DNA of 64,000 bases from Nannocystis bainbridge. Its GTDB lineage: Bacteria; Myxococcota_A; Polyangia; Nannocystales; Nannocystaceae. Shown one piece after another: positions 4,853 to 53,109 of the stretch. The notes under the pieces were generated by a model that did no database searches, was not told the DNA's origin, and saw nothing but the letters and a program-made list of their open reading frames with translations. The position numbers and the translations under genes are program-made. Every line of letters starts with the position of its first letter. The stretch's first letter is position 1. The stretch lies in assembly GCF_028368995.1 (NCBI RefSeq), contig NZ_JAQNDL010000001.1, positions 3,616,001 through 3,680,000 of the forward strand, in the 5' to 3' direction.

Positions 4853-5323
4853 TCAAAAGCGGAAGCCGAACGAAAGTCCGCGCACCTCTCGGGACATCAT
4901 CGGCGCGAGCGCCATGCCGTGGTCCCGCAGCCAGCGATGGTGCCGAGCCCGCTGGCTCATGCCCCACGCGAGGAACACCGCGCCGGTGACGGCCATGAGG
5001 CCGCCCATGCCGACGCCGACGAGCCCGTAGATCTGCAGGCCGCGGCAGGTCTGGTCGGTCGCGTTGGCGCCGTAGATGCGGTTGCAGTACTGCGGCGAGG
5101 CCATCGCGAACATCGCCACGCCGAGGCCGGTCCGGAGCAGACCGAGCGGCAGGATGACCGTGCCCGTCACGACCTTCTCGTGGCCGTCGACTGGTTCGCG
5201 CTCGCGATTCTCGCCGAAGGCGTAATAACCGCCGATCGCTTCGGGATCGCTCGGGGGTGGCGGGGGCGCCGCCAGCGCGAGCGCGGTCGCGAGCGCGACG
5301 ATGCCGGACGTCATCGCCATCAT
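4853..5323 (-). CDS. Small membrane/exported hypothetical protein
   Basis: ATG overlaps the upstream stop (ATGA at 5320-5323). Signal-like N-terminus, two hydrophobic segments, C-terminal LSFGFRF. Confidence 0.7.
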   Translation of the reverse strand: MMAMTSGIVALATALALAAPPPPPSDPEAIGGYYAFGENREREPVDGHEKVVTGTVILPLGLLRTGLGVAMFAMASPQYCNRIYGANATDQTCRGLQIYGLVGVGMGGLMAVTGAVFLAWGMSQRARHHRWLRDHGMALAPMMSREVRGLSFGFRF

Positions 5324-6516
5324 GTCCCTCCAGACAGCTCGGTGAAGCGCCGCACCTGGCGCTTGTAAAACGCCGACTCGGGCTCGAGCCGGGCGGCCTC
5401 GCGGATCGCCGCGAGCGCCTCGGCGCCGCGCCCGAGCTGGTGCTGCAGCTCGGCCCGCAAGTAGTGGAGCTCCGCAGCGTCGGGCTGCTTGGCGACCGCG
5501 GCATCGACCGCTTCGAGCGCCGGCGCCTGACCGCAGCGCTCGCGGAAGGCGAACCACCCGAACGCGCTCTTGAGGTCGACGTCGTTCTGGTCGCTCGCCA
5601 CCATCGCTTGCAGGCTGGCGATCGCCTCGTCGTCGCGCCCGAGCTTGTGCAGCTCGCGGCCGATCGCGCGGAAGGCCGGGATGGTCTCCTTGGCCGCGGG
5701 GAACTTCTGCTGCAGCTCCTTGTAGAGCGCGATCGCCCGCTCGGAGTCGCGGTCGAGCTTCGCCACCAAAAAGGCCGCGCGGTCGCGCATCGCCTTGGCC
5801 GCGAGGCCCTTGGCGTTGTCGGGGTCGCCCGCGATCACGCGCTCGAACGCCGCCTCGGCCTCGGCGCGGCGGGCCGCCAGCGCGTACGCGACCCCGAGCT
5901 CGTAGCGCGCCTGCAGGTCGTCCGGCGCGGCCGCGACCTTTTGCTCGAGCTCGGCGAGCACGTTGCCGCCTGCGGCGATCTTGGTGAGCGCGGCGAGCAG
6001 CGCCGGCGGCTCCATCGCGTCGACCAGGCGGCCCTTCTCGACCCCGTCGGCGTCGAGCACCAGCAGCGTCGGGTAGGCCTGCACCTTGTAGCGCGCCACC
6101 AGCTCGGGCCCCTCGCCCTTCTCGGCGTCGACGTGCAGCGCGACGTAGTCGGCCAGCGCCGCGCCGACGTCGGGCCGCGTGAACACCTTCTCGTCGAGCT
6201 CGCGGCAGGGCGGGCACCAGTACGCGCCGACGTCGACGAACACCAGCTTGCCCGCCGCCTTCGCCGCGGCGAGCGCCGCCTCGAGATCGCCCTCGATCCA
6301 CTTCACCGCCGACACGATCTCACCGTCGCTCTGCACCCCCGGCCCCGCGCCCGCTGGCGGGTTCACCGCTTCGGGCGCCGGCGCGGCCTTCGGCGCGACC
6401 TCGGGCGCATCGGCCTTCGGCCCCGGCGCGGTGCAGGAGCTCATGAGCATCGCGCCCACCAACGGAGCCGACAGCGCGGCGAGGAACGGGCGGACGACGG
6501 CACGAGCGCGAACCAT
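5320..6516 (-). CDS. Thioredoxin-fold (WCPPC) plus TPR lipoprotein
   Basis: VFVDVGAYWCPPC, YPTLLVL, followed by TPR-like helices. Possible lipobox MSSC. Start uncertain. Confidence 0.82.
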   Translation of the reverse strand: MVRARAVVRPFLAALSAPLVGAMLMSSCTAPGPKADAPEVAPKAAPAPEAVNPPAGAGPGVQSDGEIVSAVKWIEGDLEAALAAAKAAGKLVFVDVGAYWCPPCRELDEKVFTRPDVGAALADYVALHVDAEKGEGPELVARYKVQAYPTLLVLDADGVEKGRLVDAMEPPALLAALTKIAAGGNVLAELEQKVAAAPDDLQARYELGVAYALAARRAEAEAAFERVIAGDPDNAKGLAAKAMRDRAAFLVAKLDRDSERAIALYKELQQKFPAAKETIPAFRAIGRELHKLGRDDEAIASLQAMVASDQNDVDLKSAFGWFAFRERCGQAPALEAVDAAVAKQPDAAELHYLRAELQHQLGRGAEALAAIREAARLEPESAFYKRQVRRFTELSGGT

Positions 6517-6736
6517 GGCTCGCTTGAAGCTGCCCGGGAACCTCGCCGGCCGCAACTGCCACCCCGCGCGCAAAGCCCAAAAGCTTGCGGCCAGCCATGG
6601 CCTCGCGCAAGTGCGGCCGGCGCGTGAGGTCTCGAGACGCCCGCGCAGTTCGACCACCGCGTTGCCATTTTGACACGCGAGCCCAGGCTAGCGCTGTCCT
6701 TCAAGTCTTTTTGTCGACGCCCGCCCGAGGAACCCC

Positions 6737-9355
<2,619 letters not shown>

Positions 9356-9357
9356 CT

Positions 9358-9385
9358 TGTCCTTGAGGACATGTCCTGAGAGACA
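9358..9385. repeat. TGTC-N6-GACA tandem pair immediately after the clpB stop
   Basis: TGTCCTTGAGGACA followed by TGTCCTGAGAGACA. Confidence 0.9.
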
Positions 9386-9557
9386 TGCTTCGCCCCGGCC
9401 GCGCGCGGCCGGGGCGACGCTCGTCCACCCGGGCCCGCGGGTCACCCTTCGTGCGGCCCGATCTCTTTCGCCCGCGACACGAAGATCGCGCCTTCGATCT
9501 TGACTCACGGCGGCTCGCGCGTCGGTCGCGTGCACCGCGGCCGGCGTCCGCCGTAGA

Positions 9558-12719: not shown

Positions 12720-14354
12720 GTGGCCGGATGGTTGGAGATCCGCCGGGGCCAGGCTCCCGTCACCAACGTCAACCTCGTCGGGCGTCGCGTCATCGTCGGC
12801 CGCTCCCCCGACTGTGACGTCGTCCTCAACACCACCTCGGTCTCGCGCCAGCACGCCGAGCTGATCTGCGACGACGCCGGCTGGCGCGTGCGCGACCTCG
12901 GCAGCCGCAACGGCACCGGCGTCAACGGCACCCGCGTCGCCGGCGAGCGCGGCCTGCAGAACTGCGACGTCCTCCGCATCGACGAGTTCGACCTCGTCTT
13001 CCACACCGGCCCGGCCCCGCTGCGGCCCGCCGCGCGCCCGCGCACCAGCGTCACCGACGGCGCCTTCGGCCCCGCGCGCACCTTGCAGGAGCTGGGCCCG
13101 CCCAAGGTCGACGCCTCGCACCTCTCGCGGCTGCTCGGCTTCAGCGCCGCCTTGCTGGCCGAAGGGGCAGCCGACCAGCGCATGTTCCAGCTGTGCGAGC
13201 TGCTGACCAGCGCGCATTTCCACGGCAACGCCGCAGTGGTCCTGCGGATCCTCCGCTCCGACGCCAGCGCCCCCGAGATTCTGTCCGGCCCGACCGGCCC
13301 CGGCGGCGAGCCGCCGATCAGCCGCTCGGTGATCAAGGCCGTGCTCGCCAGCGACGCCCCCGTGCTCGCCAGCTCCGGCCCCGCCGGCCCGAAGAACAAC
13401 ATGGTCCAGATGTCGGTCGTGTTCGGCGGCCAGGCCACCGCCGCCGTCGCTTGCCCGGTCGGCGGCGACGGCGAGCACCTCGACGTCCTCTACGTCATGC
13501 TGCCCGGCCAGTACGGCACCGCCGAGTGGCTCGCGCTCGCCTCGCTCGCCTCGGCCATGTTCCGCCAGGCCGAGGACGCCTGGACCGCGCGCGAGGCGGC
13601 CCAGCGCCAGGCCCTGCTCGAGGAGGAGCTGCGGCGCGCCGCCGCGATCCAGGCCCGACTTGTCCCTCGGGACATGTCCTCCGGGTCACTTCAGATCGGC
13701 TTCGGCTTCACCCCGTGCAAGGGCGTCGGCGGCGACTACGTCGACGCCCTGCCGACCCGCGACGGCCGCGTCCTCGTCACCGTCATGGACGTCGCCGGCA
13801 AGGGCATCGACGCCGCGCTGATCGCCTCCGGCCTGCACACCACCGTGCACCTGGCGGTCCGCCAGGGCATGTCCCTGCCCGACCTCGTCCACACCTTGAA
13901 CCGCCAGCTGCTCGACACCTGGAGCGGCGAGACCTTCGTGACCCTCGCGGCCGCGCTGATCGACCCGCGCACCGGCGCGCTCGAGGCGGTCGGCTGCGGC
14001 CACCCGGCGCCGATGGTCGTCAGCCCGAACGGCATGATCCGCGAGCTCCGCCTGGCCGAGGGCATGCCGATCGGCCTCATCGACATCGAGCTCGAGCTCA
14101 GCACCGACCGCCTCCGCCCCGGCGAGCTGCTCCTCCTCTACTCCGACGGCCTGTCCGAGTGTTTTAATGAGGACGACAAGATCCTCGGCGTCGACGGCCT
14201 CACCGAGATGGTCGCCGACATCCGCCACGCCGCCGGCCGCAAGCCCGACCTCGAGTGGTTCGAGTCCCAGCTCAAGGACCGGCTGGCCCACCACCGCGGC
14301 CGCGCCCCCGCCTCCGACGACATCAGCTTCGCCCTCGCCCTGTTCGGCGCCTGA
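12720..14354 (+). CDS. FHA-domain SpoIIE/PP2C-family protein phosphatase
   Basis: GTG start. FHA (VGRSPDCD, VSRQHA, DLGSRNGT), GAF-like middle region, PP2C motifs GGDYVD, DVAGKG, YSDG, DDIS. Confidence 0.9.
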   Translation: MAGWLEIRRGQAPVTNVNLVGRRVIVGRSPDCDVVLNTTSVSRQHAELICDDAGWRVRDLGSRNGTGVNGTRVAGERGLQNCDVLRIDEFDLVFHTGPAPLRPAARPRTSVTDGAFGPARTLQELGPPKVDASHLSRLLGFSAALLAEGAADQRMFQLCELLTSAHFHGNAAVVLRILRSDASAPEILSGPTGPGGEPPISRSVIKAVLASDAPVLASSGPAGPKNNMVQMSVVFGGQATAAVACPVGGDGEHLDVLYVMLPGQYGTAEWLALASLASAMFRQAEDAWTAREAAQRQALLEEELRRAAAIQARLVPRDMSSGSLQIGFGFTPCKGVGGDYVDALPTRDGRVLVTVMDVAGKGIDAALIASGLHTTVHLAVRQGMSLPDLVHTLNRQLLDTWSGETFVTLAAALIDPRTGALEAVGCGHPAPMVVSPNGMIRELRLAEGMPIGLIDIELELSTDRLRPGELLLLYSDGLSECFNEDDKILGVDGLTEMVADIRHAAGRKPDLEWFESQLKDRLAHHRGRAPASDDISFALALFGA

Positions 14355-14526: not shown

Positions 14527-17500
14527 ATGCCGCAAGCGAAGCAGAAGTCGAAGCAGAAGGCCAAGAAGTCCGCCGCCGCCAGGGCGACCGCGAAGGCCGA
14601 CAAGCAGACGAAGAAGCCGAAGAAGAAGGCGAGCGACACCGGGCCCGCGAAGGCCAAGAAGGCCGCCAAGAAGCCCGCCGCCAAGGCCAAGAAGGCCGCC
14701 AAGACCGCTGCTCGCAAGCTCGCCAAGCGAGCCGAGAAGACCGACAAGAAGGCCAAGAAGACGGCCGACAAGGCCACCAAGAAGGCCAAGAAGACCGACG
14801 CCAAGGCCGCCAAGAAGGCGAACGCCAAGGCCGTCAAGAAGGCCGTCAAGAAGGCCACCAAGAAATCCGACGCCAAGGCCACCAAGAAGGCCGCCAAGAA
14901 ATCCGACGTCAAGGCCACCAGGAAGGCCGCCAAGAAGTCCGACGCCAAGGCCACCAAGAAGGCCGCCAAGAAGTCCGCCGACAAGGCCAAGAAGCTCGAC
15001 ACCAAGGCCGCCAGGAAGTCCGACGCCAAGGCCAAGAAGACCGCCGGCAAGCCCGCCAAGCCCGCCAAGCGGCGCGCCGCGCCCGGCCCGGCCACGGACG
15101 CCGTGCTCGCCGCGCAGCGGTTCTACGCCCTCCCGGTCGACGCCGAGGCCTTTGCCGCCAGCGAAGAGGGCCTGACCCTTCAGACAGGTGACGACCTGGT
15201 CGCCGCTCACTTCGAGCGCAACTTCGGCTACTTCGGCGCCATCGACAAGACCCTGTCCGGCTTCTACGTGCTCGACGACGAGGGCGACAACTACTACCTC
15301 GCCGACCTGCGCGACAGCGGTCAGGTGTGGTGGCAGGATCACGAGACCCGCGAAGTCTCGCTCGCCTTCGCCAGCGTCGAGGACTACGCCGGCTACCGCG
15401 AGGCCAGGGCCGCCGCCAGTGACGACGAGGACGCCGACGACGACGAGATCGCCGACCGCTTCCGTCCGCGCAAGCTCAAGTCGACCGGCGAGCGCCGGCC
15501 CAGCACCGCCAAGCTGCTCGAGCGCTACCAGTGGCTCGTGTGGCTGTTCGCGCGCAGCCACGAGCTGCGCGGGCAGATCCTCGAGCAAGACGCGGACCTG
15601 GTGAACCGCGCCTACGGCCACCTGCGCGGCACCTTCGCCACCCGCGCCGCCGAGGCCAAGGCCTTCGCCGCCGAGCGCGGCCGCCTCGCCGACGACCCGC
15701 ACCTCGGCATCTACTGGCTGCTCCACACCAGCGTGCTCGCCGACCACGCCCGCCGCGACGAGGTCGTCGCTGCTCTCGATGGCAGCGAGCACCCGCTCGT
15801 CCACGCCTTTGTCGCCGCCTTCGGCGCTCTCGCCCACGACGGCGACGTGCCCGCCGCTCCCGGTTTCCGCGTCCGTCGCTCGCGGCTGCTCTTCCTCACC
15901 GGCGGCGCCCTCACCAGCGAAGAGGTCGACCGCGAGCGCCTGACCGCCGCTCTGTTCGCCGACCCCGTCAATCACGGCTTCATCAAGGCCGAGCGTCTGG
16001 TCGACGCCGCCGCCGCCGCCGATGAGCTGCAGCAGCTCCACGACCTCGTCGCCGCCGGCCTGCCCGGGCCCGAGCTCGGCTGGCACAGCCTCGCCGCCTT
16101 GCTCGACGTGCGCGCCGGCGTCCAGGCCAGCCGCGCCGCCGATACTGTCCTCAAGGACATGAACGAAAGTACAGACGTCGACCTGCTGGCCGACGTGCTC
16201 GAGCTGCTGGCGCCGGTGGCGACCGACCGCGAGCAGGTGCGCGCGCTGATCGACAGCGTGCTCGCGCGCGACCCGTTCCACTGGGGCGTGCTGGAGGTCG
16301 GCAAGGTCGCCGCCGAGCGCGACCTCGAGGTCGCGCGCGCCGAGCAGTTCATCGCCCGCATCGCCCCGCTCGCCGAGGTGCGGCCGCTCCTGCTCGAGAT
16401 CTTCAGCGAAGACGACGACGAGCGCGGGGCCGCCCTCAAGCGGCTGCGCGAGCTCCCGCCGGCGCAGCAGCACCTGCTCGCCCGCCGCCTGCTCGTCATG
16501 GCCAGCCAGATCGCCGGCGACGCCCTCGCGGTCGCCGTCGATGTCCTGCTCGGCGCCGGCGACCCCGACGCCCTCGCCGAGCTCGCGCGCACCGTCGAGG
16601 GGTTGCAGGACCCGTCGCAGTTCGCCGAGCAGCTCGTCGAATTGCGCGAGGCCGGCATCGTCGACCTCGCCGACCCGCTGCTGCCGATCGTCCAGGGCCT
16701 GCTCCTGCGGCCCGAGAGCGACGGGTTCATGGCCGACCACTGGAAAGAGGCGCTGGTCGAGAAGCTGGCGCCGGTCGCCCACGAGCCGGTCGTGTTCGAC
16801 TGGTTGCTGGCCGCGCTCGAAGAGGACAGCCGGCACAGCCTGCGCGACGACATCCTCTCCAAGCTGTTCATCGCCTACAACGACAACCAGGTCGTCGCTC
16901 GCCTGTCCGAGGCGCAGGCCTCCCGCCTGATCCGCCTGGCCGCGCGCCTCGGCGTCAAGCCGGCCGACGCCGACGCGCACGAAGACGGCGTGTTCCCGGC
17001 GATCCACGTCTACCACGCCGCCGGTCGGGTCCTGTTCTACTTCGACAACCCGGGCGGCTTGCCGGCGATCGCCGAGGTCCTCGCGCAGGCGACCGACGTC
17101 GAGCTGCTGAGCAACCTCTACAGCGCGCTCGCCCACATCAAGACCGAGGACTCGCTGGGGCTCCTGCGCTCGCGCCTGTTCGTCGAGCAGCGGCAGGTCT
17201 GGAACCTCTGCAACGCCGTCGCCGAGACCTTCGACGACGAGGGCCACGCCGAGGTCATGGCCGAGCTCGAGCGGACCCGCAGCGACCACGGGGCCAACAG
17301 CTACGCGGTGGTGTTCATCGACTTCGCCAACGACACCAAGAAGAAGCCGCACACCTACGTCGCCCAGCTCGCGCGGGCCGTGCTCGGCTGGCCGGAGCCG
17401 ACCGATCCGCGGGCCCGCGGCCAGCGCAAGTTCGTGCTGATGCACGCCGTCCGGCTCGGGCTCGAGAGCGCCGACCACGAGCTCGTGCGCCTGGCCCACC

Positions 17501-19173: not shown

Positions 19174-19270
19174 TGCTTTGCAGACATGTCCTTCAGAGCA
19201 TGCTCCAATGAGCATGTCTTATGTGACATGTTATTCAGGACATGATTCCATGAACATGCCCGCCTGGGCA
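19174..19270. repeat. TGTC-N6-GACA-type array, 7 units, between convergent genes
   Basis: CATG junctions at 19172, 19185, 19199, 19213, 19227, 19241, 19255 and CACG at 19269. The period is 14 bp except for one 13-bp unit. Confidence 0.92.
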
Positions 19271-22818: not shown

Positions 22819-23210
22819 TCGCCGAGGATAGCCGCGACGTGACCGGCCGCCCAGCGGGCTCCGCTGCAGTCGCCGCGCGGGGAGTTCACCGCGACGTGCG
22901 AGGATGCGCGGCGACGAGGGCTTGCAATCGCATGCCTCCCGCCAGCTGGACATCGCTCGCGTATGCCGCCTGGACGCACGGAATCGGCCCGATGCTCGGC
23001 GCGTCCGGTCATCCGTGCGCTCCGCTTGCGCGGTCGTCGAAATACCTGTCCTTTCGGACATCTGACTCCGCGCGCCGGGGTCATGTTTGCGATCGTCGGT
23101 GTTCGCCTCGGGGCCGGGAGCAGCGAGCCTCCGAGCTCATGCCGCACGAAGCCTGCCGCTCGGGGACTTCACGCTGGCCGGGCCTGCGCCCTGGCGTACA
23201 ATGCCCGCGC

Positions 23211-28645: not shown

Positions 28646-29058
28646 GCCCCTCCTGGCGGCGCCAGGATTGGAAGGACCGGACAAATCCGCGGCTCGCTGG
28701 CACAGCGTCGACCTGATGCGAACCCCGTCACGGCGCGAGATGTCCTTGAGGACAGCCTGGGCGCGCGCTTGCCCAGAGAGGGGCTTCGGGTCAGCCTGCA
28801 ATCGGCGCCGGAGACAGCCCGACGGCCCGGCCTCACGCAGGACGGCGAGTCCCGCGAGCGGCGCGCCCCGCCGGTGAGCCCGCGCCAGAATGGCGAGGCA
28901 CCCCGATCGACGCCATGGCTGGCCGCCGAACAGCCGCCTTCTCGCTTCAATCATGCAGGCCTCTCCGGCCTCATCTCGCATGATTCGGTGCGGCGCGCTG
29001 AGTCGTGTGATTCGAATCGTCAAGACGAGTGACGAGACGTCATTCGTCGTACGAGCGC

Positions 29059-31188: not shown

Positions 31189-31258
31189 TGTCCTTGTGGG
31201 CATGTTTCTTAAAACATGTCCGAATGGACATTACTCGAAGGGCATGTCTTGAAAGACA
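31189..31258. repeat. TGTC-N6-GACA-type array, 5 units, between convergent genes
   Basis: TGTCCTTGTGGGCA, TGTTTCTTAAAACA, TGTCCGAATGGACA, TTACTCGAAGGGCA, TGTCTTGAAAGACA. Confidence 0.92.
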
Positions 31259-31467: not shown

Positions 31468-34400
31468 TCACCGCGGGCGCTCCGCCGCCTCGAGCGTCAC
31501 CGTCTCGCGCCCGCCGGCGCGGGCCAGCTCGAGCGTCACGCTCTGGCCGCGTCGGACGCTCGCGGGCGCCAGCATGCGGGCCGCGTTCTCCGAGTTGGTG
31601 GCGGACACCGACAGCCCGTCGACGCCGACGATCTCGTCGCCGGGCAGCACCCCGGCCTTGTCGGCCGGGCCGTCGATCGTGACCGCCTCGATCCACAGGC
31701 GCTTCGGCGCCTTGGGGTCCTCCTTCTCGGTCAGCGGCGGCGGCTGCTCGCCGAGCGGGCGCGGCCTCGCGGCCTCGGTCGCCCGGCGCGTGCGCAGGCC
31801 GAGCTCACCGCGATCGGCGGCGGCGACCTTGCCGGAGGCGACGCCGTAGATCGTGCCGAGGTCGGCCTCGACGCCGGCGGCCACCGAGAAGTCGGCGCGG
31901 GCGACCGTGCCGCCGTCGGAGAGGTCGCCGTCGAGGAAGTGCAGCTCGCCGGCGCCGGGGCTGACGCTGGCCAGCGCGAAGCGGCCGGTGGCGTCGGTGC
32001 GCGGGCCCTTGCCGAACAAGCTGCCGAGCAGATCGCCGGTCCGCTCACCCTTGCCGAAGGTCATCACCGACATGCCCGCCAGCGGCTGGCCGGTGCGCGA
32101 GTCGAGCAGGACGCCGCGCAGCCCGGCCCACGGCTGCAGGTCGAGGACGAGCGCGGCGCGCTCGCCCGGCTTCAGCGCGAGCTCGTGCTCGACGCGGCCG
32201 CTGTCGGCGACGGCGATCAGGCTGTACTCGCCGGGGTCGAGGTGGTCGATGCGGTGGCTGCCGGTCGCGCTGTCGACGTTCTCGCGCTCGCTGCGGGTGC
32301 CCCCGCCCGGCTTGTGGGAGGTGACGTGCAGCTCCCAGCGCGGCACCGGCTGGCCCCCGGCGCGCGCGGTGACCGTCAGCTCGGCGAGCGAGACCGTCTG
32401 CAGGCGCACGTCTGTCCCCGGGGACAGGCCGGTGACCTCGACGCGCGCGCTGCCGCGGAGGGCCTCGGCGCGCAGGGTGTAGGTCCGGCGGGCCAGGCCG
32501 GTGAACTCGAAGCGGCCGTCCTCGCCCGACAGCGCCGGCTCGCCGCGCCCCTCGAACCCCGGGAACGCCTGCGACTCGGGCTCCTTCGGCGGCTCGGGCA
32601 CGAGCCCGACCTTCTCCCCCGACCGGGCGGCCTCGGGCCGGTGGAATTGGGACTCGCCCGGGTCGCGCTGCTCCGGCGCGGCGGTGACCCATGCGTCGGC
32701 CGTCGGCGCGCCGTCGGGCCCGAGCACCACCCCGCGCAGCACCCCGTCGCGCAGCTCGACCACCAGGTCGACGCCGTGCGTGACGACCGCGGCCGAGATG
32801 GTCTTTCGAACAGGTTCGTACGACCTGTCCGCAGGGACATCCCAGCGGATCACGTTGCCCCCGCGGTCGAGCACCCGCAGCTCGTACTCGCCGCCCTCGA
32901 GGCCGCGCGCGGCGTAGGTGCCGTCCTCGGCGATCGGGTGGCGGTCGCGGCGTTCGCCGTCGAACACCATCGACATGTTGCCCCGCTTCGACGTCACCGG
33001 CATCAGCTGCACGCTGCCGCCCTTGACCGGCGCGCCGCGGGCGTCGACCACCCGGCCGGTGACCGTCGCGCGCGGCTCGAGCGTCACCACCGCCCCGCGC
33101 AGCCCTTCGACGCCGACTTCGACGTCGAGCTGGCCACGGCTGCCATCAGGCGCCTCGGCGATCACCCGCAGCTTGCCCGGCTTGACCGGCCGCAGCGTGA
33201 ACTCCCCGCCGGCGTCGGCGCGGCTGCGGACCAGCACGTTGCCGAGGTTGGCGAGCACGGTCATGAAGCCCGGTTCGTCGTCGGCGAGGGTCAGCGAGAT
33301 CGCGGCCAGCGCCGGCGGCTCGACGCGCCCGCGCAGCTCGACCCCGCGGTCGAGCTCGACCAGCACGCCGGCGATGTCGGCGTCGACCACGGTGACCGTC
33401 GGCCCGCCGAGGATCTCCGGCAGCGCCTGCTCGGCCACCGAGCCGAGCATGTACGTGCCAGGCCGCACTCCGAGCACCTCGAAGTAGCCGTCGACGGCGC
33501 TCGGGCCGGTGGCCGGCCGCAGCGCGAACGGGTCCAGCGCCAGCGCGCCGACCATGACGCCGTCGAGCGCCTTGCGCGGGTCGTCCTTCGGGGCGACAAA
33601 GCCGGAGATCTTGAACGCCCGCTCGACGCGGACCTCGACCCCCGTGAGCGCCTCGCCGATGCCCAGCTCCACCTCCGCCGGCTCGCGCGAGGCGTGCCCG
33701 GACGCCACGGCCGACAGCTTGTGCGCGCCCGAGGCCAGCCCGCCGAGGCGGAACCGGCCGCGCGCGTCGCTGACCGCCGAGCCGCCGCCGAACCCGCCGA
33801 ACTCGCCGACGCTGACGAGCGCGCCCTCGACCGGGGCGTCGCCCGGGTCGGCGCGCACCGTGCCCTCGACCGACGCGGCCGGCACCAGCCGCAGGTCGAC
33901 CGAGCGCGGGCCGCCGGCGACGTCGACGCTCTCGCTGTCGCCGGTGTAGTCGGCGTGCCAGGCGGTGACCTGGTACACGCCATCGTCGACCTGCACCACG
34001 AACCGCCCCTCGCCGTCGCTGACCGCCGGGAACGAGGCGCGGCTGAACTGGATGACGTTGCCCTCGCCCCGGCGATCGACGCTGACGATCGCGCCCTCGA
34101 CCGGGCCGCCGCCGATGTCGCTCACCGTGCCGCGCAGGGCGTGCCCGCCAGCGACCAGCGCGGCGTCGAGGCCGGCGTGGGCGGTACCTGCCTGAAACGA
34201 CAGGTCCTTGCGGACATACGGCAGGTAGCCGTCGGCCGAGGCGCTGAGGATGTAGTGACCGGGCCGCACCAGCGGCACCGACCAATCACCCGAGGCGTCG
34301 GTGCGCGCGGTGATCGGCGCACCGGTATCACCGGACTCGACCGGCGCACCGAGACCTTTCGGCCGCAGCATCACCACCGCGCCGGCGAGGCCCCGCTTGC

Positions 34401-34626: not shown

Positions 34627-34670
34627 CGGCCCAGTCTCGACCAGCCGACGCGCGAGCGCAAGCCTCAGCA

Positions 34671-34698
34671 TGTCCCTCAGGACATGCTCTTCGGGACA
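34671..34698. repeat. TGTC-N6-GACA tandem pair
   Basis: TGTCCCTCAGGACA followed by TGCTCTTCGGGACA. Confidence 0.8.
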
Positions 34699-36465: not shown

Positions 36466-36521
36466 TGCCCCTTCGGACATGCCCCTTGTGACATGTCTTT
36501 TAAAACATGCCTGAAAGGGCA
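36466..36521. repeat. TGTC-N6-GACA-type array, 4 units, between convergent genes
   Basis: TGCCCCTTCGGACA, TGCCCCTTGTGACA, TGTCTTTTAAAACA, TGCCTGAAAGGGCA. Confidence 0.9.
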
Positions 36522-36527
36522 TATTTT

Positions 36528-37445
36528 TTAGGGATATCGCAGCGGCCCGTCGCCGCGCTCGCGCGCGCGCAGGAACAGGCGGGCCAGCTCGGGGTGGCGC
36601 TGAAATTCGTCGCTGGCCGTGCGGCCGCGGTGGGCGCCGTGAAAGCCGCGGGTCTGCGTCTCGATCCGGAACGCCGGGCGAGCCGGGCGCAGCACCTGGC
36701 CGCTGTCGACCCCGAGGCTGACGATCGCCCGCGGCCGCCCGACAGTCAGCACCTCGGCCAGCACGCGCTGAAAGTTGGCAGCGGTGGTGTCGGTGTCGAA
36801 GTAACGGCCGGTCAGCGCCTCGGCGGCGGTGGCCGCCAGCGGCAGCACCGCGCTCGCCAGCGTCAGGCGGCGGCCGTTTCCGGCGTAGCGGTGCAGCGTG
36901 ACGGCGCCGAGCGACTCGCGCTCGCCCGGCACCAGGCCCGCGCTCGCCAGCCGGACCGTGACGTCGAGGCAGTCGGCCCCGTCGACGAACGCCGCCGTGG
37001 GGTTGTCGGCGACCCCGGCGAACGGGCCGAAGCCGGTGAGCACGAGCATCGCATCGCCTGTCCCTGAGGACAGCTCGCGCACCGCGGTGGCGATCACCCG
37101 CGCGCACTGCTGCAGGTTGTCGGCCCGCGGCAGCAGATGCCCCGCGGCGGCCGCCGAGGCGCCGGTGCAGCGGTCGGGCGGGACGTGGATGAAGCCGGTG
37201 AGCACGCCGGCGAGCCGCGAGTCGCCGGCCAGCGCGATCAGGTTGGCGAGCTGATCGGCGCAATAAAAGCTGCCGGGGTCGACACCGAGCTGCACGTCGG
37301 CCTCGGCGCCGGCGTCGGCGACGGCGATCGCCCGCAGCAGGTCGCGCTGGCCGACGTAGCGGTCGCCGCTGCGGATCGCGTGGTCGGCGACGCCCGCGGC
37401 CGCCTGCGGGGCGTAGTCACGGCCGTAGGCCTCGAGCGCGTCCAT
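36528..37445 (-). CDS. Circularly permuted pyroglutamyl-peptidase I (C15)-like protein
   Basis: DPGSFYC and GFIHVP precede LVLTGFGPFAGVADNPT and PRAIVSLGV...FRIE. Confidence 0.75.
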   Translation of the reverse strand: MDALEAYGRDYAPQAAAGVADHAIRSGDRYVGQRDLLRAIAVADAGAEADVQLGVDPGSFYCADQLANLIALAGDSRLAGVLTGFIHVPPDRCTGASAAAAGHLLPRADNLQQCARVIATAVRELSSGTGDAMLVLTGFGPFAGVADNPTAAFVDGADCLDVTVRLASAGLVPGERESLGAVTLHRYAGNGRRLTLASAVLPLAATAAEALTGRYFDTDTTAANFQRVLAEVLTVGRPRAIVSLGVDSGQVLRPARPAFRIETQTRGFHGAHRGRTASDEFQRHPELARLFLRARERGDGPLRYP

Positions 37446-39595: not shown

Positions 39596-40953
<1,358 letters not shown>

Positions 40954-40957
<4 letters not shown>

Positions 40958-41880
40958 GCGGCCTCCGGCAGGCGCACGCAGAAGCAGGCGCCGCGCCCGT
41001 CGGGGCCGAGGCCGCCGCCGGGGACCAGCTCGAGCGCGCCGCCGTGGGCCTCGGCGATGCGCGCGGCGGTGGCGAGGCCGAGGCCGGTGCCGGTCTTCTT
41101 GGTGGTGAAGAACGGCTCGAACAGCCGCGCCGCGTGCTCGGGCGCGACGCCGGGGCCGTCGTCGCGCACCAGCAGCTCGACCGTCGGCCCGCGCCGGCGC
41201 ACCCGCAGCTCGATGCGCCCGTCGTCGCCGATCGCCTGGGCGGCGTTCAGCGCCAGGCCGTAGACCAACTGCGCCAGCAGGTCGGGGTCGCCGCGCAGCG
41301 CCGGCCCGTCGCCCTCGGCGGCGTCGAGCCGGCCGCGCTTCGGCCGCAAGGCGTCGCGCACCAGCGGCTCGACCGCGGTCACCAGCCCCGCGAGCTCGAC
41401 CTCCTCGCGCCGCGGCGCCAGCGGCCGCGCGTAGTCGAGCAGCGCGGTGACGACGGCGTTGAGACGATCGACCTCCTCGACGATGAAGCGCGCGGCCTGA
41501 TGATTATCTGTCCCCGGGGACATGTCCTCGAGGACAAGCGAGGCCGACGAGCGGATCACCCCGAGCGGGTTGCGGACCTCGTGGGCGACGCCGGCGGCGA
41601 GGCGACCGATCGCCGCCAGCTTCTCGCTGTGGGCCGCGCGCCGGTGGCTGGCCGCGAGCGCGGCGGCGCTGGCCCGCAGCCGGTCACGGGCGTCGAGCAG
41701 CAGGCCGATCGCGTAGCCGAAGCCGGCGAAGGTGAGGGCGAAGAAGCCGACCACCACCGGCGAGACTTCGACGCCGGCGAGCCCCAGCAGCAGGAAATCG
41801 AACAGGCCGGCCGCGAACCCGAGGGCGGCGCCGAACCAGGCGCGGCGCGTGGAAGGTGGCGAGGGCGGCGCTGGGGTCAC
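40954..41880 (-). CDS. Membrane sensor histidine kinase
   Basis: Two TM segments; AHEVRNPL H-box, NAAQA, DDGPG, FFTTK, GTGLGL. ATGA overlap with the RR gene. Confidence 0.92.
41509..41536. repeat. Two perfect TGTC-N6-GACA palindromes in tandem inside the HK CDS
   Basis: TGTCCCCGGGGACA followed by TGTCCTCGAGGACA; both are fully palindromic 14-mers. Confidence 0.9.
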
Positions 41881-42156: not shown

Positions 42157-42190
42157 GCAACGCGTGTTGCAGGCCCGCAACATCGATCGC
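42157..42190. promoter_or_regulatory. Putative enhancer (UAS) for the sigma54 activator
   Basis: GCAAC-GCGT-GTTGC and a degenerate second copy, GCAACATCGATCGC, 20 bp downstream. Both lie upstream of a -24/-12 promoter. Confidence 0.5.
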
Positions 42191-42233
42191 GCCACGCCGG
42201 CCCCGAAGCCCCGCCGCGGCCCCGATCGGCCGC

Positions 42234-42249
42234 TGGCACGCGAGTTGCT
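42234..42249 (+). promoter_or_regulatory. Sigma-54 (-24/-12) promoter
   Basis: TGGCACG-CGAG-TTGCT matches the TGGCACG-N4-TTGCW consensus, 30 bp before the ATG at 42279. Confidence 0.85.
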
Positions 42250-42278
42250 CAAGCACGGGCAGCAAAGGAAATCATCGC

Positions 42279-42601: not shown

Positions 42602-42790
42602 TGTCCCGCGGGACAGGCCCGCGGGAGCCGCGAACTCCGCGCAGATCGCGGCTCGCCTAACATGTCCCCCGGGACAGCTAGGGCGAGCCGCGACCTCCCG
42701 GCATCGACCTGTTCTTCGCTACATCTCATCCGTCAGCCGCCAGAATCTATGGTCTTTCGAACATGTCTGTTAAGACATGCACGAAAATCA
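42602..42790. repeat. Cluster of TGTC-N6-GACA units between convergent genes
   Basis: Perfect units at 42602, 42663 and 42764; degenerate units at 42710, 42750 and 42778. Confidence 0.85.
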
Positions 42791-43741: not shown

Positions 43742-44916
43742 GACGAAGATCTCAATGGTTAGAGTGCGAACGAACAAGGGAATGGCGAGCGCTTCGCCCC
43801 GACCGAGACCATCACAATGACCATGGCGCGGCGAGGCAGCGACTTTATTTCGGAATAGCAGAGTTCGTGTCGAAGCCAAGAGGCCGCCGATCCGCCGGCG
43901 GGGCGCGTGATGGGCTTCGGGGGCGGCAAGATGGCTGCCTCGGGCCCGGCGCTCGGGTCGCCGATTGCGGCCCGTAGATCGCGGGGAGGCTGTCTGCGGT
44001 AACGTCGCACCCGGGCATGGTCTCCCCTTCGTGTCGAAGGACGAGCTCCCGTCCTCGATGCCCGGGTAGCGTCGCCGACCGGCCTTAACGATCAACCCTT
44101 TCGCTGCGAGATGTCGCCGGCGTCGCCAGGCGCCACGTCGCCGAGGAGGCGCGAGAGGGCGATCACAAGTCGTCTCGCGCGCTGCGCCCGGCCCGCGAGC
44201 ACGTGCCTTCGCGCTCGAGGCATTCGTTGCGCCGTTGAAACTATGCACAGTGGGACCGCGCGGCGGAGGTTTCACGCGAGCGTCGACGCGCCCGCGAGAA
44301 AGCGCAAAAAAGCGGGCCAGGACGCGGGGGAGGGTGCGTCCTGGCCCGGGGGTGGGGAAGGCAACGTGTGACGGTGGAGCGGGTGCAGCGGCCCGGCCGC
44401 CGGGCATGTCCTTTCGCAGGGAGCTCTCGCCGGTGACCGCCGCGCCTCGGTGCATCCCGGGCCGCGTCGTCCCTCGGCTCTCCGGTAGTGTCGCCACCTC
44501 GCCTTTCGGGTTAATCGCGTCGATGCATATTGCGAGGATGCAGACGGTGAGACAGCAGCAGATACGCGAATCACCGGAGAACCCGACGCGCCGAGCGCCA
44601 CGGACATGTACGTCCGCGGCGCTCGCGGTGCCACGATTCGCGGGTGACGCAGGGGCGCAGCCGACTAAGGGATGCATCGCGGGTGCTCCTCAGCCAGGTG
44701 ACCGAAGGGCGCCGAACAATTTCTCGCAGCGCCGAATTCTCGATCACCCGCCGGTGCGCCGCCTCCGCGCGCGGCCGGCCGCGGAGGCCCCATCGTCACC
44801 GTCCACGAGGTCGGCCAGGACGACGGCCAGGTGCCCGTGGCGACGGCGCTCGTCCGCGGCGCCGCCCTCGACGCGTGGGCCCGTGACGGCCGTGGCGCGA
44901 GGTCGCCCGCCCTCGG

Positions 44917-48316: not shown

Positions 48317-48372
48317 TGTCCTTTACAACATGCCCTGATCGCCATGTCCTTATCGACATGTCTGATCCGGCA
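48317..48372. repeat. TGTC-N6-GACA-type array, 4 units, downstream of nudC
   Basis: TGTCCTTTACAACA, TGCCCTGATCGCCA, TGTCCTTATCGACA, TGTCTGATCCGGCA. Confidence 0.9.
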
Positions 48373-48387: not shown

Positions 48388-49338
48388 TCAGCCGCGGGCC
48401 AGCGTCGTCAGCTCGAGCCCGGCCGTCTCGCGCAGCCAGTGCTCGATCAGCCGGAACGACACCGACAGCGGCGGCGGCAGCACCAGCGAGCCGTCGGCCA
48501 GCGAGCCCACGATCTCGTCGGCCGTGAACCACCGGGCCGCCTCGAGCTCCGGGCCCACCTGCAGCTCCGGGCCCTGCGCCTCCGCGGTGAAGCCCAGCAT
48601 CAGCGACGCCGGGAACGGCCACGGCTGCGACGAGTGGTAATCGCACTCGGCCACCGTCACCCCGCTCTCCTCGAACACCTCGCGGCGGACCGCGTCCTCG
48701 AGCGTCTCGCCTGGCTCGACGAACCCTGCCAGCGTCGAGAAGCGGCCTGGCGGCCAGCTGGCCTGGCGGCCGAGCAGGCACGCGTCGCCCCAGCCGACGA
48801 TGACGATGATCGCCGGGTCGGTGCGCGGGAAGTGTTCGATGCGGCAGGCCGGATTGGTGCAGCGGGCCCGGTGCCCCGCCGACACGAAGATCGTCGGCGA
48901 ACCGCACGCGCCGCAGAAGCGGGCTCGCGTCTGCCAGTGGAGCAGCCCGCGGGCGTACGCGAACAGCCCGGCGTCGAAGGCCGGCAGCGCCAGCCCGGCC
49001 GCGCGCAGGTCCATCCATTGCCCGCCGAGCTCGCGCGCCAGCGGCTCCTCGTCGTCGCCGGCGTGGGCCACCGCGAAGTGGGCCACCTGCTCCGCCTCGC
49101 CCAGATAGAACAGCGGCGCCGTCGCCAGCCACGCCGCCCGCTCCGCCTCGGCCAGCAGGCGCAGCCCGCGGCGCGTCGCGTCGACCAGCGCCTTGCCGTC
49201 CGGGCGCACCACCGCGTATCGCGTCGTCTCGGCCGTCCTGCGCGTCTCGATCCACCCCGCGTCGTCGCGGCGCTCGCTCGCGCGGTCGAGCGCCAGCGCG
49301 GCGAACACATTGTTGCGGCTGCGGGTGCTGGTCGCCAT
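48388..49338 (-). CDS. nudC: NAD(+) diphosphatase NudC
   Basis: FCGACG zinc ribbon, FPRTDPAII, Nudix box GFVEPGETLEDAVRREVFEESG, SQPWPFPASLM. Confidence 0.93.
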   Translation of the reverse strand: MATSTRSRNNVFAALALDRASERRDDAGWIETRRTAETTRYAVVRPDGKALVDATRRGLRLLAEAERAAWLATAPLFYLGEAEQVAHFAVAHAGDDEEPLARELGGQWMDLRAAGLALPAFDAGLFAYARGLLHWQTRARFCGACGSPTIFVSAGHRARCTNPACRIEHFPRTDPAIIVIVGWGDACLLGRQASWPPGRFSTLAGFVEPGETLEDAVRREVFEESGVTVAECDYHSSQPWPFPASLMLGFTAEAQGPELQVGPELEAARWFTADEIVGSLADGSLVLPPPLSVSFRLIEHWLRETAGLELTTLARG

Positions 49339-49708
49339 CGTCAGAGTTCCTCCTGCGCCCGTCGGCGTGGGCGAGCGCGGCCGGGGCCTGGGCGGGGACG
49401 CGGGAGCATCGGCGGCGGGCAGCATGCCGCGTCCGTCCGCCCCGCGCCAGCGGCCCTGGCGACCGCCGCCACGCCAGGCCATGCACGCCACCGATCGGCC
49501 GCCCGCCTCGCCCCGCGGTGACCCCGCGAGCGTCCGCGCATTCACATCACATGTCTCTCGGGACATCTACCCAATCGCCGCCGCGAATCACGGTTGCGTC
49601 CCCGGATTAGGGGTTCCTCGCCCGCAGAGGTGTCGGCGAACGACCCCTGAACAAAAGACTAGCTGTGGCGCGCGGTATCGCGTACAAGGAGCGCGGAGAC
49701 ACCCCCTC

Positions 49709-50344
49709 ATGTCCATCACGTTTTACTACAACCCCATGTCCTCGGCCTCTCGCGTCCAGCTCACCCTCGCGGAGCTCGACATCCCCCACGAGAAGGTCTT
49801 CGTCGACCTGCAGGCGAAGGACCAGCGCAAGCCCGAGTTCCTCAAGCTCAACCCCAACGGCAAGATCCCCACGATCGTCGTCGACGGCCAGCCGATGTTC
49901 GAGTCGATCGCCATCCAGATCTACCTGGGCGAGCGCTACGGCGTCGAGCGCGGCCTGTGGCCGGCCGTCGGCTCACGCGAGCACATGCAAGCCCTGACCT
50001 GGCTGTGCTGGGCCCAGGTCTCGCTCGGCACCCCGCTCTTCACGTACATGCACAACGCCAGCGAGCAGGTCCCTGCCGAGGCGCGCAACGCCGTGCAGGC
50101 CGAGCGGGCGCTGGCCGAGCTGCACGAGGCCCTGGCGATCCTCGACGCCCGCCTCGGCGAGACCGGCAACATCGTCCACGACAAGTGGACCCTCGTCGAC
50201 GCCGACGTGTCGAGCGTGCTCGGATGGGGCCTCTACATGATCAAGCTCGACGCCTCCAAGTACACCCATCTCACTGCCTGGCTGGAGCGCGCGGACAGCC
50301 GCCCCGCCGCCCGCGCCCTGAGGGAAGCCCACCAGCAGGCCTGA
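49709..50344 (+). CDS. Glutathione S-transferase family protein
   Basis: FLKLNPNGKIP, FESIAIQIYL, WTLVD. Confidence 0.93.
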   Translation: MSITFYYNPMSSASRVQLTLAELDIPHEKVFVDLQAKDQRKPEFLKLNPNGKIPTIVVDGQPMFESIAIQIYLGERYGVERGLWPAVGSREHMQALTWLCWAQVSLGTPLFTYMHNASEQVPAEARNAVQAERALAELHEALAILDARLGETGNIVHDKWTLVDADVSSVLGWGLYMIKLDASKYTHLTAWLERADSRPAARALREAHQQA

Positions 50345-51362: not shown

Positions 51363-51926
51363 GTCGAGACCTCTGGGGGGCGACGTTGCCATTACACGCG
51401 ATCGCCGACGCGGCCAGCCCCGACGAGCACGCCGACGCCCCGGAGAGCGAGCCCAGCCGCGATGAAGCCAGCCAGGCGACGCTCGCGCTCGCCGCCCGGT
51501 CGATTCACCTCTGCGCATCGAAGGCCTCCGGCGAGCGGCCGAGCCCGGTCGCAGTGCCCGGATAGATGTCCGGCGCAATTCGCGTCTCACCGCCGAGGCA
51601 GCTCACGAATCGACCGCTCGCTGCAATTGCAACGAACATCCCCACCGACGCTACCCGGCATCACGACACCATCAGCCTCGCGCCCATCCTCTCCGTGCAG
51701 CGAAAGTTTTCGCGCCGGGCGCTCGCGCTCGTGCACCCTCCTGCGAACCCCGACCTCCGTCACCCGCTGCCGCGTGGCACCGCCCGATCTGCGCCCGCCT
51801 GCGCTCTCGCCATTCTATTCATTCCGGTCGCGCGCCACCGCGGAACTCGCCCTCACCGCGCCCATTCCCTGCCCTTTGCCCCCGGTTTGCGACGCCCGGA
51901 GCGGCGTGCCACGCTCCCCCTCCGTG

Positions 51927-53075
51927 ATGATTCGCCTCCTCCCCGCGGCGCTGCTGGTCGGCAGCGCTGCTTGCATCTTCCCGCTCTCGCCCGACCCCAC
52001 CGGCTCCGACCCGGACACCGATGCCTCCGGGAGCACCACCGGCGCCGTCGACCCCGTCACCGGCGAGCCCGACCCCACCGGCGGCCCCGGCACCACCGCC
52101 GCGCCCACCACCAGCGGCGCCACCACCAGCGACGGCAGCGGCGAGCCCTCCACGGGCGGGCCCGACATCACCGGCGACGACCCCTCGCCGGCCCCGATCG
52201 TCACCGAGGTGTGGGAGTTCGACGCCATGGACCTCGGTGACGTCGACGGCGACGGCCGCCTCGACCTCGTCACCTCCGGCACCGGCGCTCCCCCGCGCAT
52301 CACCGTCTACCCCGGCCGCGGCGACGGCAGCTTCGACCGCGACGCCGCCGTCGACAGCCCGCTGTTCGGCTTCTCGCAGTTCGTCGTCGCCGACGTCACC
52401 GGAGACGGGCGCGCCGACGTCCTGGCCCATGGGACAGGTAGCCCGCCGCGGATCACCGTCTACGCCGGCGGCGACGACCTCACCGTCTCCGAGCTGGCCA
52501 CCACCCAGCTCTTCACCTTCAAGCACATGCACGCGGGCGACCTGACCGGCGACGGCCACGCCGACCTCCTGATCGGCGACGGCGACAGCTTCATGCCGTG
52601 GGTCCAGGTGTGGCCGGGCACCGAGAGCGGCATCGCCGACGCGCCGCTCTCCGCCGTCAATCCATGGGCCTACGCCCTGCTACGCAGCGGCGACGTCACC
52701 GGCGACGGCCACCTCGACCTCGTCACCGCCAGCACCGGCTCCCCGCCGCAGTTGTACGTCCACCCCGGCGACGGCGCCGGCAACCTCGGCGAGCCGCAGA
52801 TCGCGGAGATCTTCAACCTCTCATGGTTCGACCTCGGCGACTTCGACGGCGACGGCCTCGCCGACGCGGCGACCGACATCCCCGGCAACGCCTGGCGCTT
52901 TCAAGTCTACCTCGCCACCCAGGGCGGCTGGACCGACCCGGTCGCCCACGACGGCTTCAACTTCGTGCGCTTCGAGCTCGGCGACCTCGACGGCGACGGC
53001 CGCGCCGATCTCGTCGCCCAGGCCGCCGGTTATCCGCCCCGCGTCGAGGTCTACCTCGGCGCCGCGCTGCCCTGA
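51927..53075 (+). CDS. FG-GAP/VCBS repeat lipoprotein
   Basis: Lipobox SAAC; Thr/Gly/Asp linker; six GDxxGDGxxD repeats. Confidence 0.88.
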   Translation: MIRLLPAALLVGSAACIFPLSPDPTGSDPDTDASGSTTGAVDPVTGEPDPTGGPGTTAAPTTSGATTSDGSGEPSTGGPDITGDDPSPAPIVTEVWEFDAMDLGDVDGDGRLDLVTSGTGAPPRITVYPGRGDGSFDRDAAVDSPLFGFSQFVVADVTGDGRADVLAHGTGSPPRITVYAGGDDLTVSELATTQLFTFKHMHAGDLTGDGHADLLIGDGDSFMPWVQVWPGTESGIADAPLSAVNPWAYALLRSGDVTGDGHLDLVTASTGSPPQLYVHPGDGAGNLGEPQIAEIFNLSWFDLGDFDGDGLADAATDIPGNAWRFQVYLATQGGWTDPVAHDGFNFVRFELGDLDGDGRADLVAQAAGYPPRVEVYLGAALP

Positions 53076-53109
53076 TGCGACCTGTCCCGCGAGACAGGTC
53101 ACGCATCCT

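Follow-up and report, generated by a model that had tools for sequence, protein, structure and literature searches.

Repetitive extragenic palindromic (REP) sequences lie between unidirectional or convergent open reading frames (ORFs), downstream of coding regions and at times inside genes, as far as the part of the report available to us states (PMC3733652). The dimer of the Bacillus subtilis transcription factor PadR reads the operator C-n-T-G-n-A-N6-T-n-C-A-n-G, and the crystal contains additional dimers that grip a 'bridge operator' arising half a duplex (14 bp) away, according to the accessible portion of the structural account (PMC5728393). Here we analyse the spaced palindrome TGTC-N6-GACA in a 64-kb stretch of Nannocystis bainbridge DNA (C1:3616001-3680000, hereafter referred to as the window) and in the 11.05-Mb, five-contig, 71.5% GC genome to which it belongs. 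The palindrome defines a family of 14-bp recognition units with dyad symmetry that is restricted to one clade and spread over the whole genome; the units occur singly and in head-to-tail arrays with a strict 14-bp phase. We tentatively favour, at a little less than an even chance, the reading that these arrays are bound by a protein and mark the ends of transcription units.

A first-pass annotation of the window had counted 24 perfect copies of the palindrome, and exactly these 24 occur (Table 1), as compared with a mean of 0.44 in 100 dinucleotide-preserving shuffles (s.d. 0.73, largest 3; 0/100 reach 24). Its impression of many near matches also held, with 60 sites lying within two mismatches of TGTCC-N4-GGACA against 23.6 ± 4.8 in the shuffles, whereas the GC content, which it had put at about 74%, proved to be slightly lower, at 0.70-0.75 per 4-kb block. 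Across the genome, TGTC-Nk-GACA is found 3663 times at k = 6 and 29-175 times at each of the spacings k = 0-5 and 7-19. Within called genes, 1452 copies are present at k = 6, about 13-fold more than the 108-118 found in five synonymous-codon shuffles, which preserve every protein and its codon usage and were run on a crude set of 6374 called genes; the 40 copies observed at k = 3 and the 23 at k = 9 compare with 40-55 in the shuffles. The spacing count and the codon-aware null thus agree on an excess specific to k = 6. Under a maximal-order Markov model, ACATGT is the top over-represented hexamer and TGTCCCGA the top octamer, and when every 4-mer dyad with a spacing of 0-14 was scanned de novo, TGTC-N6-GACA ranked first both in the window and in 200 kb of a relative (G007). 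About 10,000 units exceed background genome-wide, and the motif is the most conspicuous sequence signal of the 11-Mb genome.

The proposal that the element is chromosome-wide was likewise borne out, as sites lie on all five contigs and in regions of both GC-skew signs, with a mean of 33 per 100 kb (range 4-60 in 109 bins). Site density per 100-kb bin is overdispersed and is lower in lower-GC bins, and no clear pattern of polarity between origin (ori) and terminus (ter) emerged from the genome-wide 100-kb bins and GC skew. Three stretches (C1 500-600 kb, C1 1.1-1.3 Mb and C5 400-500 kb) hold only 4-8 sites per 100 kb and have a GC skew near zero; these site-poor stretches may represent recently acquired DNA or giant gene clusters.

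The consensus unit, comprising 14 bp and its flanks, is C-n-T-G-n-C-C-N4-G-G-n-C-A-n-G, and the profile of the 3663 sites reads (A/G)-C-(A/C)-TGTC-C-(C/T)-n-n-(G/A)-G-GACA-(T/G)-G-(T/C), with a flanking signal that decays with a 14-bp period. The high genomic counts of GACA-N0-TGTC (2237), GACA-N14-TGTC (1305) and TGTC-N20-GACA (984) indicate that units are arranged head to tail. These 14-bp-phased tandem arrays, together with the post-stop and convergent-gap bias described below, had been missed by the first-pass annotation. Units with at least 8/10 arm bases number 13775, against 3316 for the reversed control, and form 8568 singles, 1260 pairs, 543 triples, 263, 225, 101, 20 and 9 chains of four to eight units, respectively, and one chain each of 9 and 11 units. 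The chain-length curve is steep, shows a plateau at four and five units and then falls, a possible sign that arrays of about 70-85 bp are preferred.

Of the GACATGTC junctions, 88% have an N6 partner matching at least 3/4 (background 8.8%), and a good abutting partner is missing from 32% of units; the N6 unit, as the first-pass annotation had defined it, is therefore primary. A typical array consists of one or two good units amid degenerate ones: perfect five-base-arm units abut as pairs only 16 times in the genome and never as triples, and a scan of a genome collection returned no match for three perfect five-base-arm units in a row. In neighbouring units on which no condition had been placed, conservation declines from the junction C-A-T-G (0.86-0.91) through C4/G11 and C5/G10 (about 0.7) to T3/A12 (about 0.55). 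Some arrays contain higher-order repeats of three units (42 bp, corresponding to four helical turns and 14 codons; for example, C1:638643 and C1:855888), and others show a 56-bp period.

The placement of the units was determined relative to genes called with our own crude ORF finder, which relies on the GC content of third codon positions (GC3) and yields a coding fraction of 0.77, making the gap classes approximate. Intergenic DNA accounts for 23% of the genome and holds 2159/3663 sites; per kb, convergent gaps contain 1.55 sites, co-directional gaps 0.755 and divergent gaps 0.385. The proportion of gaps that hold a unit with at least 9/10 matching arm bases is 47-65% for convergent gaps, 13-56% for co-directional gaps, 2% for divergent gaps shorter than 100 bp and 11% for those of 100-300 bp, as compared with 0-3% for a control motif. 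In co-directional gaps, 745/1071 sites are closer to the upstream stop than to the downstream start. Sites concentrate in the roughly 50 nucleotides (nt) following stop codons, with 83-110 per 10 nt in the first 20 nt and 6 per 10 nt at 200-300 nt. Resolved to single bases, array positions are locked to the stop codon in either of two registers (-3, 11, 25, 39, 53 and 2, 16, 30), in both of which the TGA forms part of a unit. Additional peaks at -13 and +1 of called start codons may be an artefact of the first-ATG rule. The bias towards post-stop positions and convergent gaps suggests transcription-unit ends or REP-like behaviour, not ori/ter architecture.

As the first-pass annotation had observed, sites lie both beside unrelated genes and inside coding sequences (CDSs), and the in-gene copies are real. 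There are 740 intergenic arrays of at least three units and 144 that lie deep inside called genes. Altogether, 935 sites lie at least 200 nt inside called genes, 479 of them with strong codon periodicity on both sides, a test passed by 76% of random genic positions, and the genic sites occupy all three reading frames and encode many different peptides. In positions 1-40000 of the window, stem-loop and T-run terminators are near shuffle level (14 versus 6.2; 6 versus 4.7) and are mostly inside genes, and a search of 40 kb of the window for sigma-70-like promoters gave no match.

The 6-nt spacer does vary, as had been claimed: 255/256 inner tetramers occur, and the inner four bases carry 7.0 of 8 bits. 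Spacers are identical in 3.3% of 2784 pairs of adjacent units and in 3.3% of units 28 bp apart, below the 5.9% of 977 pairs 42 bp apart, the chance level being 1.3%; some local duplication occurs, oddly most in three-unit blocks. Since neighbours share spacers in only 3.3% of pairs, the arms evidently persist while the spacers randomize.

Symmetric spacer positions are complementary at the level expected from independence (0.591 versus 0.571, 0.330 versus 0.334 and 0.269 versus 0.264). With the other arm bases fixed, position 2/13 has the G/C consensus in 1987 units and about 50 single variants altogether, and position 3/12 has 1889 single variants, the commonest of which is T/C (U-C type; 451, versus 314 of the wobble type), such that roughly every second unit that is perfect elsewhere has a mismatch at 3/12. 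Double complementary arm variants show no excess after chance correction, except for T/A at 4/11. On the sense strand 3′ of genes, variants of the G-U type are about as frequent as those of the C-A type (328/263, 215/187, 316/298, 72/82 and 29/26), and the spacer has no preferred orientation (CTTCGG 30 versus CCGAAG 34). We thus rejected an RNA hairpin, given the lack of a complementarity excess and of a wobble preference, the little strand bias and the absence of a sense bias for UUCG-type loops. Nor is the unit a selected hairpin, since one copy in two has a break at the middle of the five-pair stem. A comparison of the window with Rfam gave 0 matches.

The half-sites are base-specific and vary independently, which argues for a symmetric dimer that reads duplex DNA. 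The first-pass annotation had likewise regarded the fixed arms as what a dimer would read, and the independent half-sites and the lack of a complementary-spacer excess agree with it. It had further proposed the recognition site of a nucleoid-organising or DNA-processing protein; the dimer-like pattern supports the recognition site, whereas nucleoid organization is only one of several functions that would fit. The duplex-dimer reading is better supported than any particular function.

Among 59 genomes from 14 genera of Nannocystaceae, five-base-arm sites are abundant only in Nannocystis (g1; 333-2090) and two sister genera (g2, 87-169; g4, 67-295), to which the motif is confined within the family; the remaining 11 genera have 0-20 such sites (controls 0-7), and in 12 other families of the class the motif is at background. 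All 10 Nannocystis genomes are rich, with 240-3957 four-base-arm sites (controls 6-48). One g2 genome (G011) has 623 four-base-arm but only 87 five-base-arm sites. An alternative dyad 'dialect' was sought in a motif-poor genus, and no comparable dyad was found in 200 kb of its genome G035; the corresponding scans of g2 and g4 covered 100 kb and 41 kb, samples too small to judge. A literature search on Nannocystis, Sorangium and myxobacteria, which did not extend to supplementary files, found no description of the motif.

Conservation was assessed for seven window sites aligned with five relatives (Table 1) and in a 330-kb block syntenic with G007, in which 103/184 sites had a candidate orthologous stretch. 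Sites without a collinear match within 1.5 kb (81), with a flank identity below 0.6 (9) or straddling a called gene edge (3) were dropped, and the expected retention was computed site by site by raising the flank identity to the eighth power. Of the intergenic sites, 18/53 still carry a perfect unit (6.0 expected), as do 27/38 of the coding sites (14.0 expected), and at the coding sites the arms differ at 0.062 and the flanks at 0.142. Where intergenic units are retained (18 sites), divergence is 0.06-0.22 at the unconditioned positions beside the arms and 0.49 in the inner spacer. The intergenic signal is bimodal: a unit either survives with its motif positions unchanged or disappears altogether.

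Outside the class, Sulfitobacter and Roseovarius genomes contain 103-215 sites (controls 22-54), with TGTCA-N4-TGACA arrays that have AT-rich spacers and in which TGTCATATATGACA is recurrent. Of six array loci there, four are flanked by convergent genes with Pfam support, a fifth probably is, and the sixth is within a CobN gene (Table 1), in a collection scan whose pattern itself required 14-bp phasing. These loci show that this kind of element is found again elsewhere, which does not imply a shared reader, and they hint at a recurrence of the system in other phyla.

The first-pass annotation had stated that no known system has this consensus. This stands for characterized regulators of this lineage, from whose genome PadR is absent, but PadR operators share both the geometry and the specific bases of the unit, namely a 6-bp-spaced dyad, a specific C-n-T-G in each half and the same alternation of specific and free positions. 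Moreover, at five actinomycete loci a tandem TGTC-N6-GACA pair adjoins the start of a gene encoding PadR and Vir_act_alpha_C domains, and this subfamily is present at 19/105 array loci of the collection scan. Such genes in Actinomycetospora, Pseudonocardia, Dactylosporangium and Nocardia have between two and four units in 14-bp phase at their start. The actinomycete tandem units are probably autoregulatory operators of one PadR subfamily. As the reader of the Nannocystis units, PadR was rejected because the family is absent from this genome and most motif-rich relatives; our own PadR profile, run at full sensitivity on this genome, reached a best E-value of 0.05, with ArsR, HxlR, GntR and MarR proteins as its top matches. 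The scarcity of PadR across Nannocystaceae (16/59 genomes, many of 8-15 Mb) is unusual for such large genomes.

Other candidates fared no better. HTH_34, a weak co-hit of one PadR, was excluded by its absence from the genus (0/10 genomes). A search for an autoregulated reader covered 56 divergent gaps of at most 400 bp that contain a unit, and their 29 small flanking genes, inspected by eye only, revealed no obvious shared DNA-binding protein. In a proteobacterial metagenome-assembled genome (L063 2536-2604), three TGTCC-N4-AGACA units lie about 80-150 bp upstream of a divergently read gene for a 120-residue XRE-family (HTH_3) protein, which makes the XRE family a second candidate reader family for the dyad; this particular protein was dropped, as it has only a weak relative in the present genome (E-value 6e-6, confined to the helix-turn-helix (HTH)). 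A preprint on bacterial histones, in the part available to us, includes homologues of the Bdellovibrio histone HBb from Nannocystis exedens, Plesiocystis and Enhygromyxa; chromatin in Nannocystaceae may be unusual.

From the motif, its phasing, placement, conservation and clade limits, we infer a protein-bound element with a role at gene ends. Each unit would be read as duplex DNA by a symmetric dimer with PadR-type winged-helix operator geometry, and neighbouring dimers would share the CATG junction and load cooperatively along the array. Arrays that directly follow stop codons and fill convergent gaps would most likely label the ends of transcription units or insulate them, by acting as a bidirectional protein roadblock, as a supercoil barrier or anchor, or as both. 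Single units inside genes would then be weaker sites, either tolerated or nucleoid-wide. A more specific form of the proposal, which we place on the unlikely side, holds that Nannocystis and its two sister genera, in which T-tract terminators are seemingly scarce, evolved a sequence-specific gene-end chromatin mark: an abundant non-PadR dimer that polymerizes on 14-bp-phased dyad arrays past stop codons and in convergent gaps and serves as a bidirectional terminator or insulator, or as a supercoil barrier.

Several points count against protein-bound arrays at transcription-unit ends. The function is deduced from position alone, and positions past stop codons also collect any harmless repeat. 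The crude GC3 gene calls make the coding fractions and the 'divergent' classes error-prone. Across the 53 intergenic orthologous places, the arms (0.276) are conserved no better than the flanks (0.278). Symmetric T/A double variants at 4/11 show a mild unexplained excess (38 versus about 11 expected). Finally, no reader was found among the candidate families searched: PadR (PF03551), the only family known to read such a pattern, has no match over the cut-off in this genome, is absent from 2/6 large genomes of the genus, including one that is complete (G001), and occurs in 0/5 genomes of the motif-rich g4.

In a repeat akin to REPs and the bacterial interspersed mosaic elements (BIMEs) that they form, short palindromic units would have spread, or expanded locally, as selfish or neutral DNA wherever they do least harm, and any activity would be that of RNA 3′ hairpins stabilizing or ending transcripts; we consider this unlikely. 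The placement equals that reported for REPs in the available part of the source (PMC3733652), but the REP-associated tyrosine transposase (RAYT; Y1 transposase, PF01797) has 0 matches in the genome (90% complete), and the 140 genes flanked by units on both sides form no REPtron-like family, their largest homology cluster having six members. Arrays, clade-limited abundance and thousands of copies suit such a repeat, as do the traces of local duplication among spacers and T-tract terminators near noise in the window; the nearly random spacers, however, imply that the units did not arise by copying one master sequence. Nor could a 14-bp insertion have yielded the hundreds of frame-neutral units inside genes, in all three frames, and the 5-bp stem that a hairpin needs would often not form, with its middle arm pair mismatched in about half of the units and no wobble or compensatory signal. 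The unit also falls short of the length of REPs and lacks their tags.

In a drive of the kind seen with the DNA uptake sequences (DUS) of Neisseria and the uptake signal sequences (USS) of Pasteurellaceae, uptake machinery or another form of self-recognition would prefer the motif, and recombination would enrich it wherever it is tolerated, with no need for an advantage at individual sites; we regard this as decidedly unlikely. Those uptake sequences are asymmetric contiguous 9-12-mers read in one orientation, not 14-bp-phased dyads, and drive does not predict phase-locked arrays of 3-11 units, although it would account for a motif that is genome-wide, that enters coding sequence in three frames and at the cost of amino-acid changes, and that is enriched at gene ends, clade-specific and the top over-represented word. 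Its depletion in lower-GC bins and the hint of a g2 dialect in G011 point the same way. ComEC and DprA are present, but they are found in most bacteria and are hence little informative, and we know of no uptake bias or transformation in Nannocystis.

Very improbable, in our estimation, is a by-product resembling the highly iterated palindrome HIP1, in which a methyltransferase and short-patch repair would push near-cognate sequences towards the palindrome. A palindrome over-represented in and between genes, a best-kept array core, CATG (0.86-0.91 per base), that is a typical methylase word, and the prevalence of C-to-T-type variants at positions 4 and 5 would suit this origin, whereas the variable 4-6 bp spacer, the strict 14-bp phasing and the concentration at stop codons are unexpected under it, and Vsr, found in 1/19 motif-rich genomes, was excluded. 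That the sites form the conventional regulon of a transcription factor, of the PadR family or a similar one, is scarcely credible and, in our view, already refuted, for although geometry and specific bases equal those of PadR operators, PadR is absent here and in most motif-rich genomes, promoter-only regions are avoided (2-11% of divergent gaps below 300 bp occupied) and 3663 perfect sites are far beyond any regulon.

About half of all convergent gaps are occupied by this element, yet no description of it was found. Should a protein read the units, this would be an instance, in bacteria, of transcription-unit ends being marked by a defined sequence, with a bearing on how high-GC bacteria with few canonical terminators stop transcription and cope with supercoils trapped between converging polymerases. 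Should they instead be a repeat spread by drive, they would constitute a dispersed palindrome family without a transposase or hairpin behaviour and would bear on the unsolved origins of REP-, DUS- and HIP1-type sequences. Under any reading, the units offer a concrete bait for pull-down experiments and matter for the annotation and engineering of Nannocystis natural-product gene clusters.

The sites of the window and the array loci of other genomes are compiled in Table 1. The G+C-rich inverted repeat that follows the units at 9358 (9392-9417, without a T run) is kept in five relatives with compensating changes, and 3′ of it two relatives have a several-hundred-bp insertion built of internal repeats.

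Table 1. Units and arrays in the 64-kb window, with their state in same-genus relatives, and array loci in other genomes
Feature	Position	Context	Same-genus relatives
Single perfect unit	5323..5336	Minus-strand gene junction; covers the last codons of the upstream gene, and the flanking CATGA contains its TGA stop, which overlaps the next ATG	Perfect in 5/5
Two abutting units	9358..9385	Start 3 nt past the stop of plus-strand gene 6737-9355; then a G+C-rich inverted repeat	Second unit (9372) recognizable in 5/5, spacers differing
One perfect and one near-perfect unit	13661..13688	Real CDS, between FHA and SpoIIE (PP2C) domains	13661 perfect in 5/5
Single perfect unit	16146..16159	Within a 1534-aa CDS	Right arm imperfect in all 4 that align; differences alter amino acids
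Degenerate 14-bp-phase array (units 19187, 19215, 19229, 19257)	19187..19270	Fills convergent gap 14527-19131 (+) / 19300-22140 (-)	Counterpart of the array at 19215 in only 1/5
Single unit on called start codon	22126..22139	Minus-strand gene 19300-22140; flanking CATG gives the ATG	Perfect in 5/5
Single perfect unit	23047..23060	Upstream of hydrolase domain, ORF 22839-24098; coding status doubtful	No orthologous stretch in 5
Single perfect unit	28741..28754	N-terminal extension of ORF 27653-29137, ahead of dehydrogenase domain; probably a 5′ untranslated or intergenic position	
Five-unit array, 14-bp phase	31189..31258	Starts 14 nt past the stop of gene 30024-31175	
Single perfect unit	32413..32426	Within CDS of a 1067-aa CarboxypepD_reg/PDZ protein	
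Single perfect unit	32826..32839	Same CDS as 32413	
One perfect and one near-perfect unit	34671..34698	5′ edge of minus-strand gene 31468-34671	
Three near-perfect units (36466, 36480, and 36508 as TGCC...GGCA variant)	36466..36522	Fill convergent gap 35736-36452 (+) / 36528-37445 (-); last unit followed by a T run	
Single perfect unit	37059..37072	ORF 36528-37445, without a Pfam family	
Single unit	40732..40745	Receiver-domain CDS, sigma-54 response regulator	
Two abutting perfect units	41509..41536	HisKA-domain CDS, histidine kinase	
Three separate perfect units (42602, 42663, 42764)	42602..42777	Intergenic, genes 40954-42252 (-) and 42788-44677 (-)	
Perfect unit 48345 and a weaker unit 28 bp upstream	48317..48358	Intergenic	
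Single unit	49552..49565	Ahead of GST domains, ORF 49193-50344; probably upstream of its true start	
Single unit	53083..53096	14 nt beyond the 3′ end of minus-strand gene 53110-53937	
Sulfitobacter/Roseovarius arrays	L080 6061-6116; L120 7189-7216; L098 4152-4179; L072 818-859	Between convergent genes, Pfam-supported	
Sulfitobacter/Roseovarius array	L119 485-526	Convergent genes probable; upstream ORF without a Pfam family	
Sulfitobacter/Roseovarius array	L075 7111-7138	In CobN gene	
Actinomycete PadR loci	L050, L103, L109, L101, L110; also L052, L054, L102, L104 by eye		

A comparison with described systems places the units as follows. With the REP and BIME families of enterobacteria, Pseudomonas and Stenotrophomonas, as far as the accessible parts of the sources describe them, they have in common short palindromic units in hundreds to thousands of copies, a lineage-specific abundance, and positions downstream of genes in co-directional and convergent gaps, in arrays and with occasional genic copies. 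They differ in that the unit measures 14 bp, whereas REPs, in the same sources, measure 20-40 bp; in the flank profile of the 3663 sites, which shows no GTAG or CGTC tag; in the lack of a RAYT and of a REPtron-like arrangement; in arms that do not behave as a base-paired stem; and in head-to-tail units at a fixed 14-bp period with nearly random spacers. PadR operators such as that of padC share two half-sites 6 bp apart, and the C-n-T-G-n-x alternation, and their dimers can sit 14 bp apart, in the available portion of the account (PMC5728393). Unlike such operators, the Nannocystis sites lie at gene ends rather than promoters and number thousands rather than a handful, in a genome that has no PadR gene.

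Similar to DUS and USS, the motif is a top over-represented word, in coding and non-coding DNA, that is frequent at gene ends and has a family-level distribution, but it is a symmetric spaced dyad with a free centre and phased arrays. HIP1 of cyanobacteria is a contiguous 8-bp word found genome-wide, without a spacer, arrays or a stop-codon bias. Both it and the Nannocystis motif are palindromes iterated genome-wide in and between genes, and a reader protein is known for neither; the latter differs as a spaced dyad in arrays biased to stop codons. The Neisseria repeat dRS3 (ATTCCC-N8-GGGAAT), in Neisseria intergenic mosaic element (NIME) arrays, flanks longer repeats and serves as an integration target. 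It resembles the present unit as a spaced palindrome with a free spacer and hundreds of intergenic copies in arrays, whereas the Nannocystis units abut directly, and no mobile element using them turned up, although no dedicated search was made.

The site sets of chromosome-organising proteins (the Noc-binding sites NBS, the SlmA-binding sites SBS, matS of MatP and parS of ParB) comprise tens to hundreds of sites and are often regionally restricted. The units would resemble them as sequence-specific sites if a chromosome-organising protein reads them, but differ in having 3663 perfect copies on all contigs and in both skew signs. CdbA of Myxococcus xanthus binds in and between genes at a motif that the accessible part of its report describes in words as a GC-rich direct repeat separated by 4 bp (PMC7156744). 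The Nannocystis unit is an inverted repeat, and CdbA was excluded as its reader on this difference.

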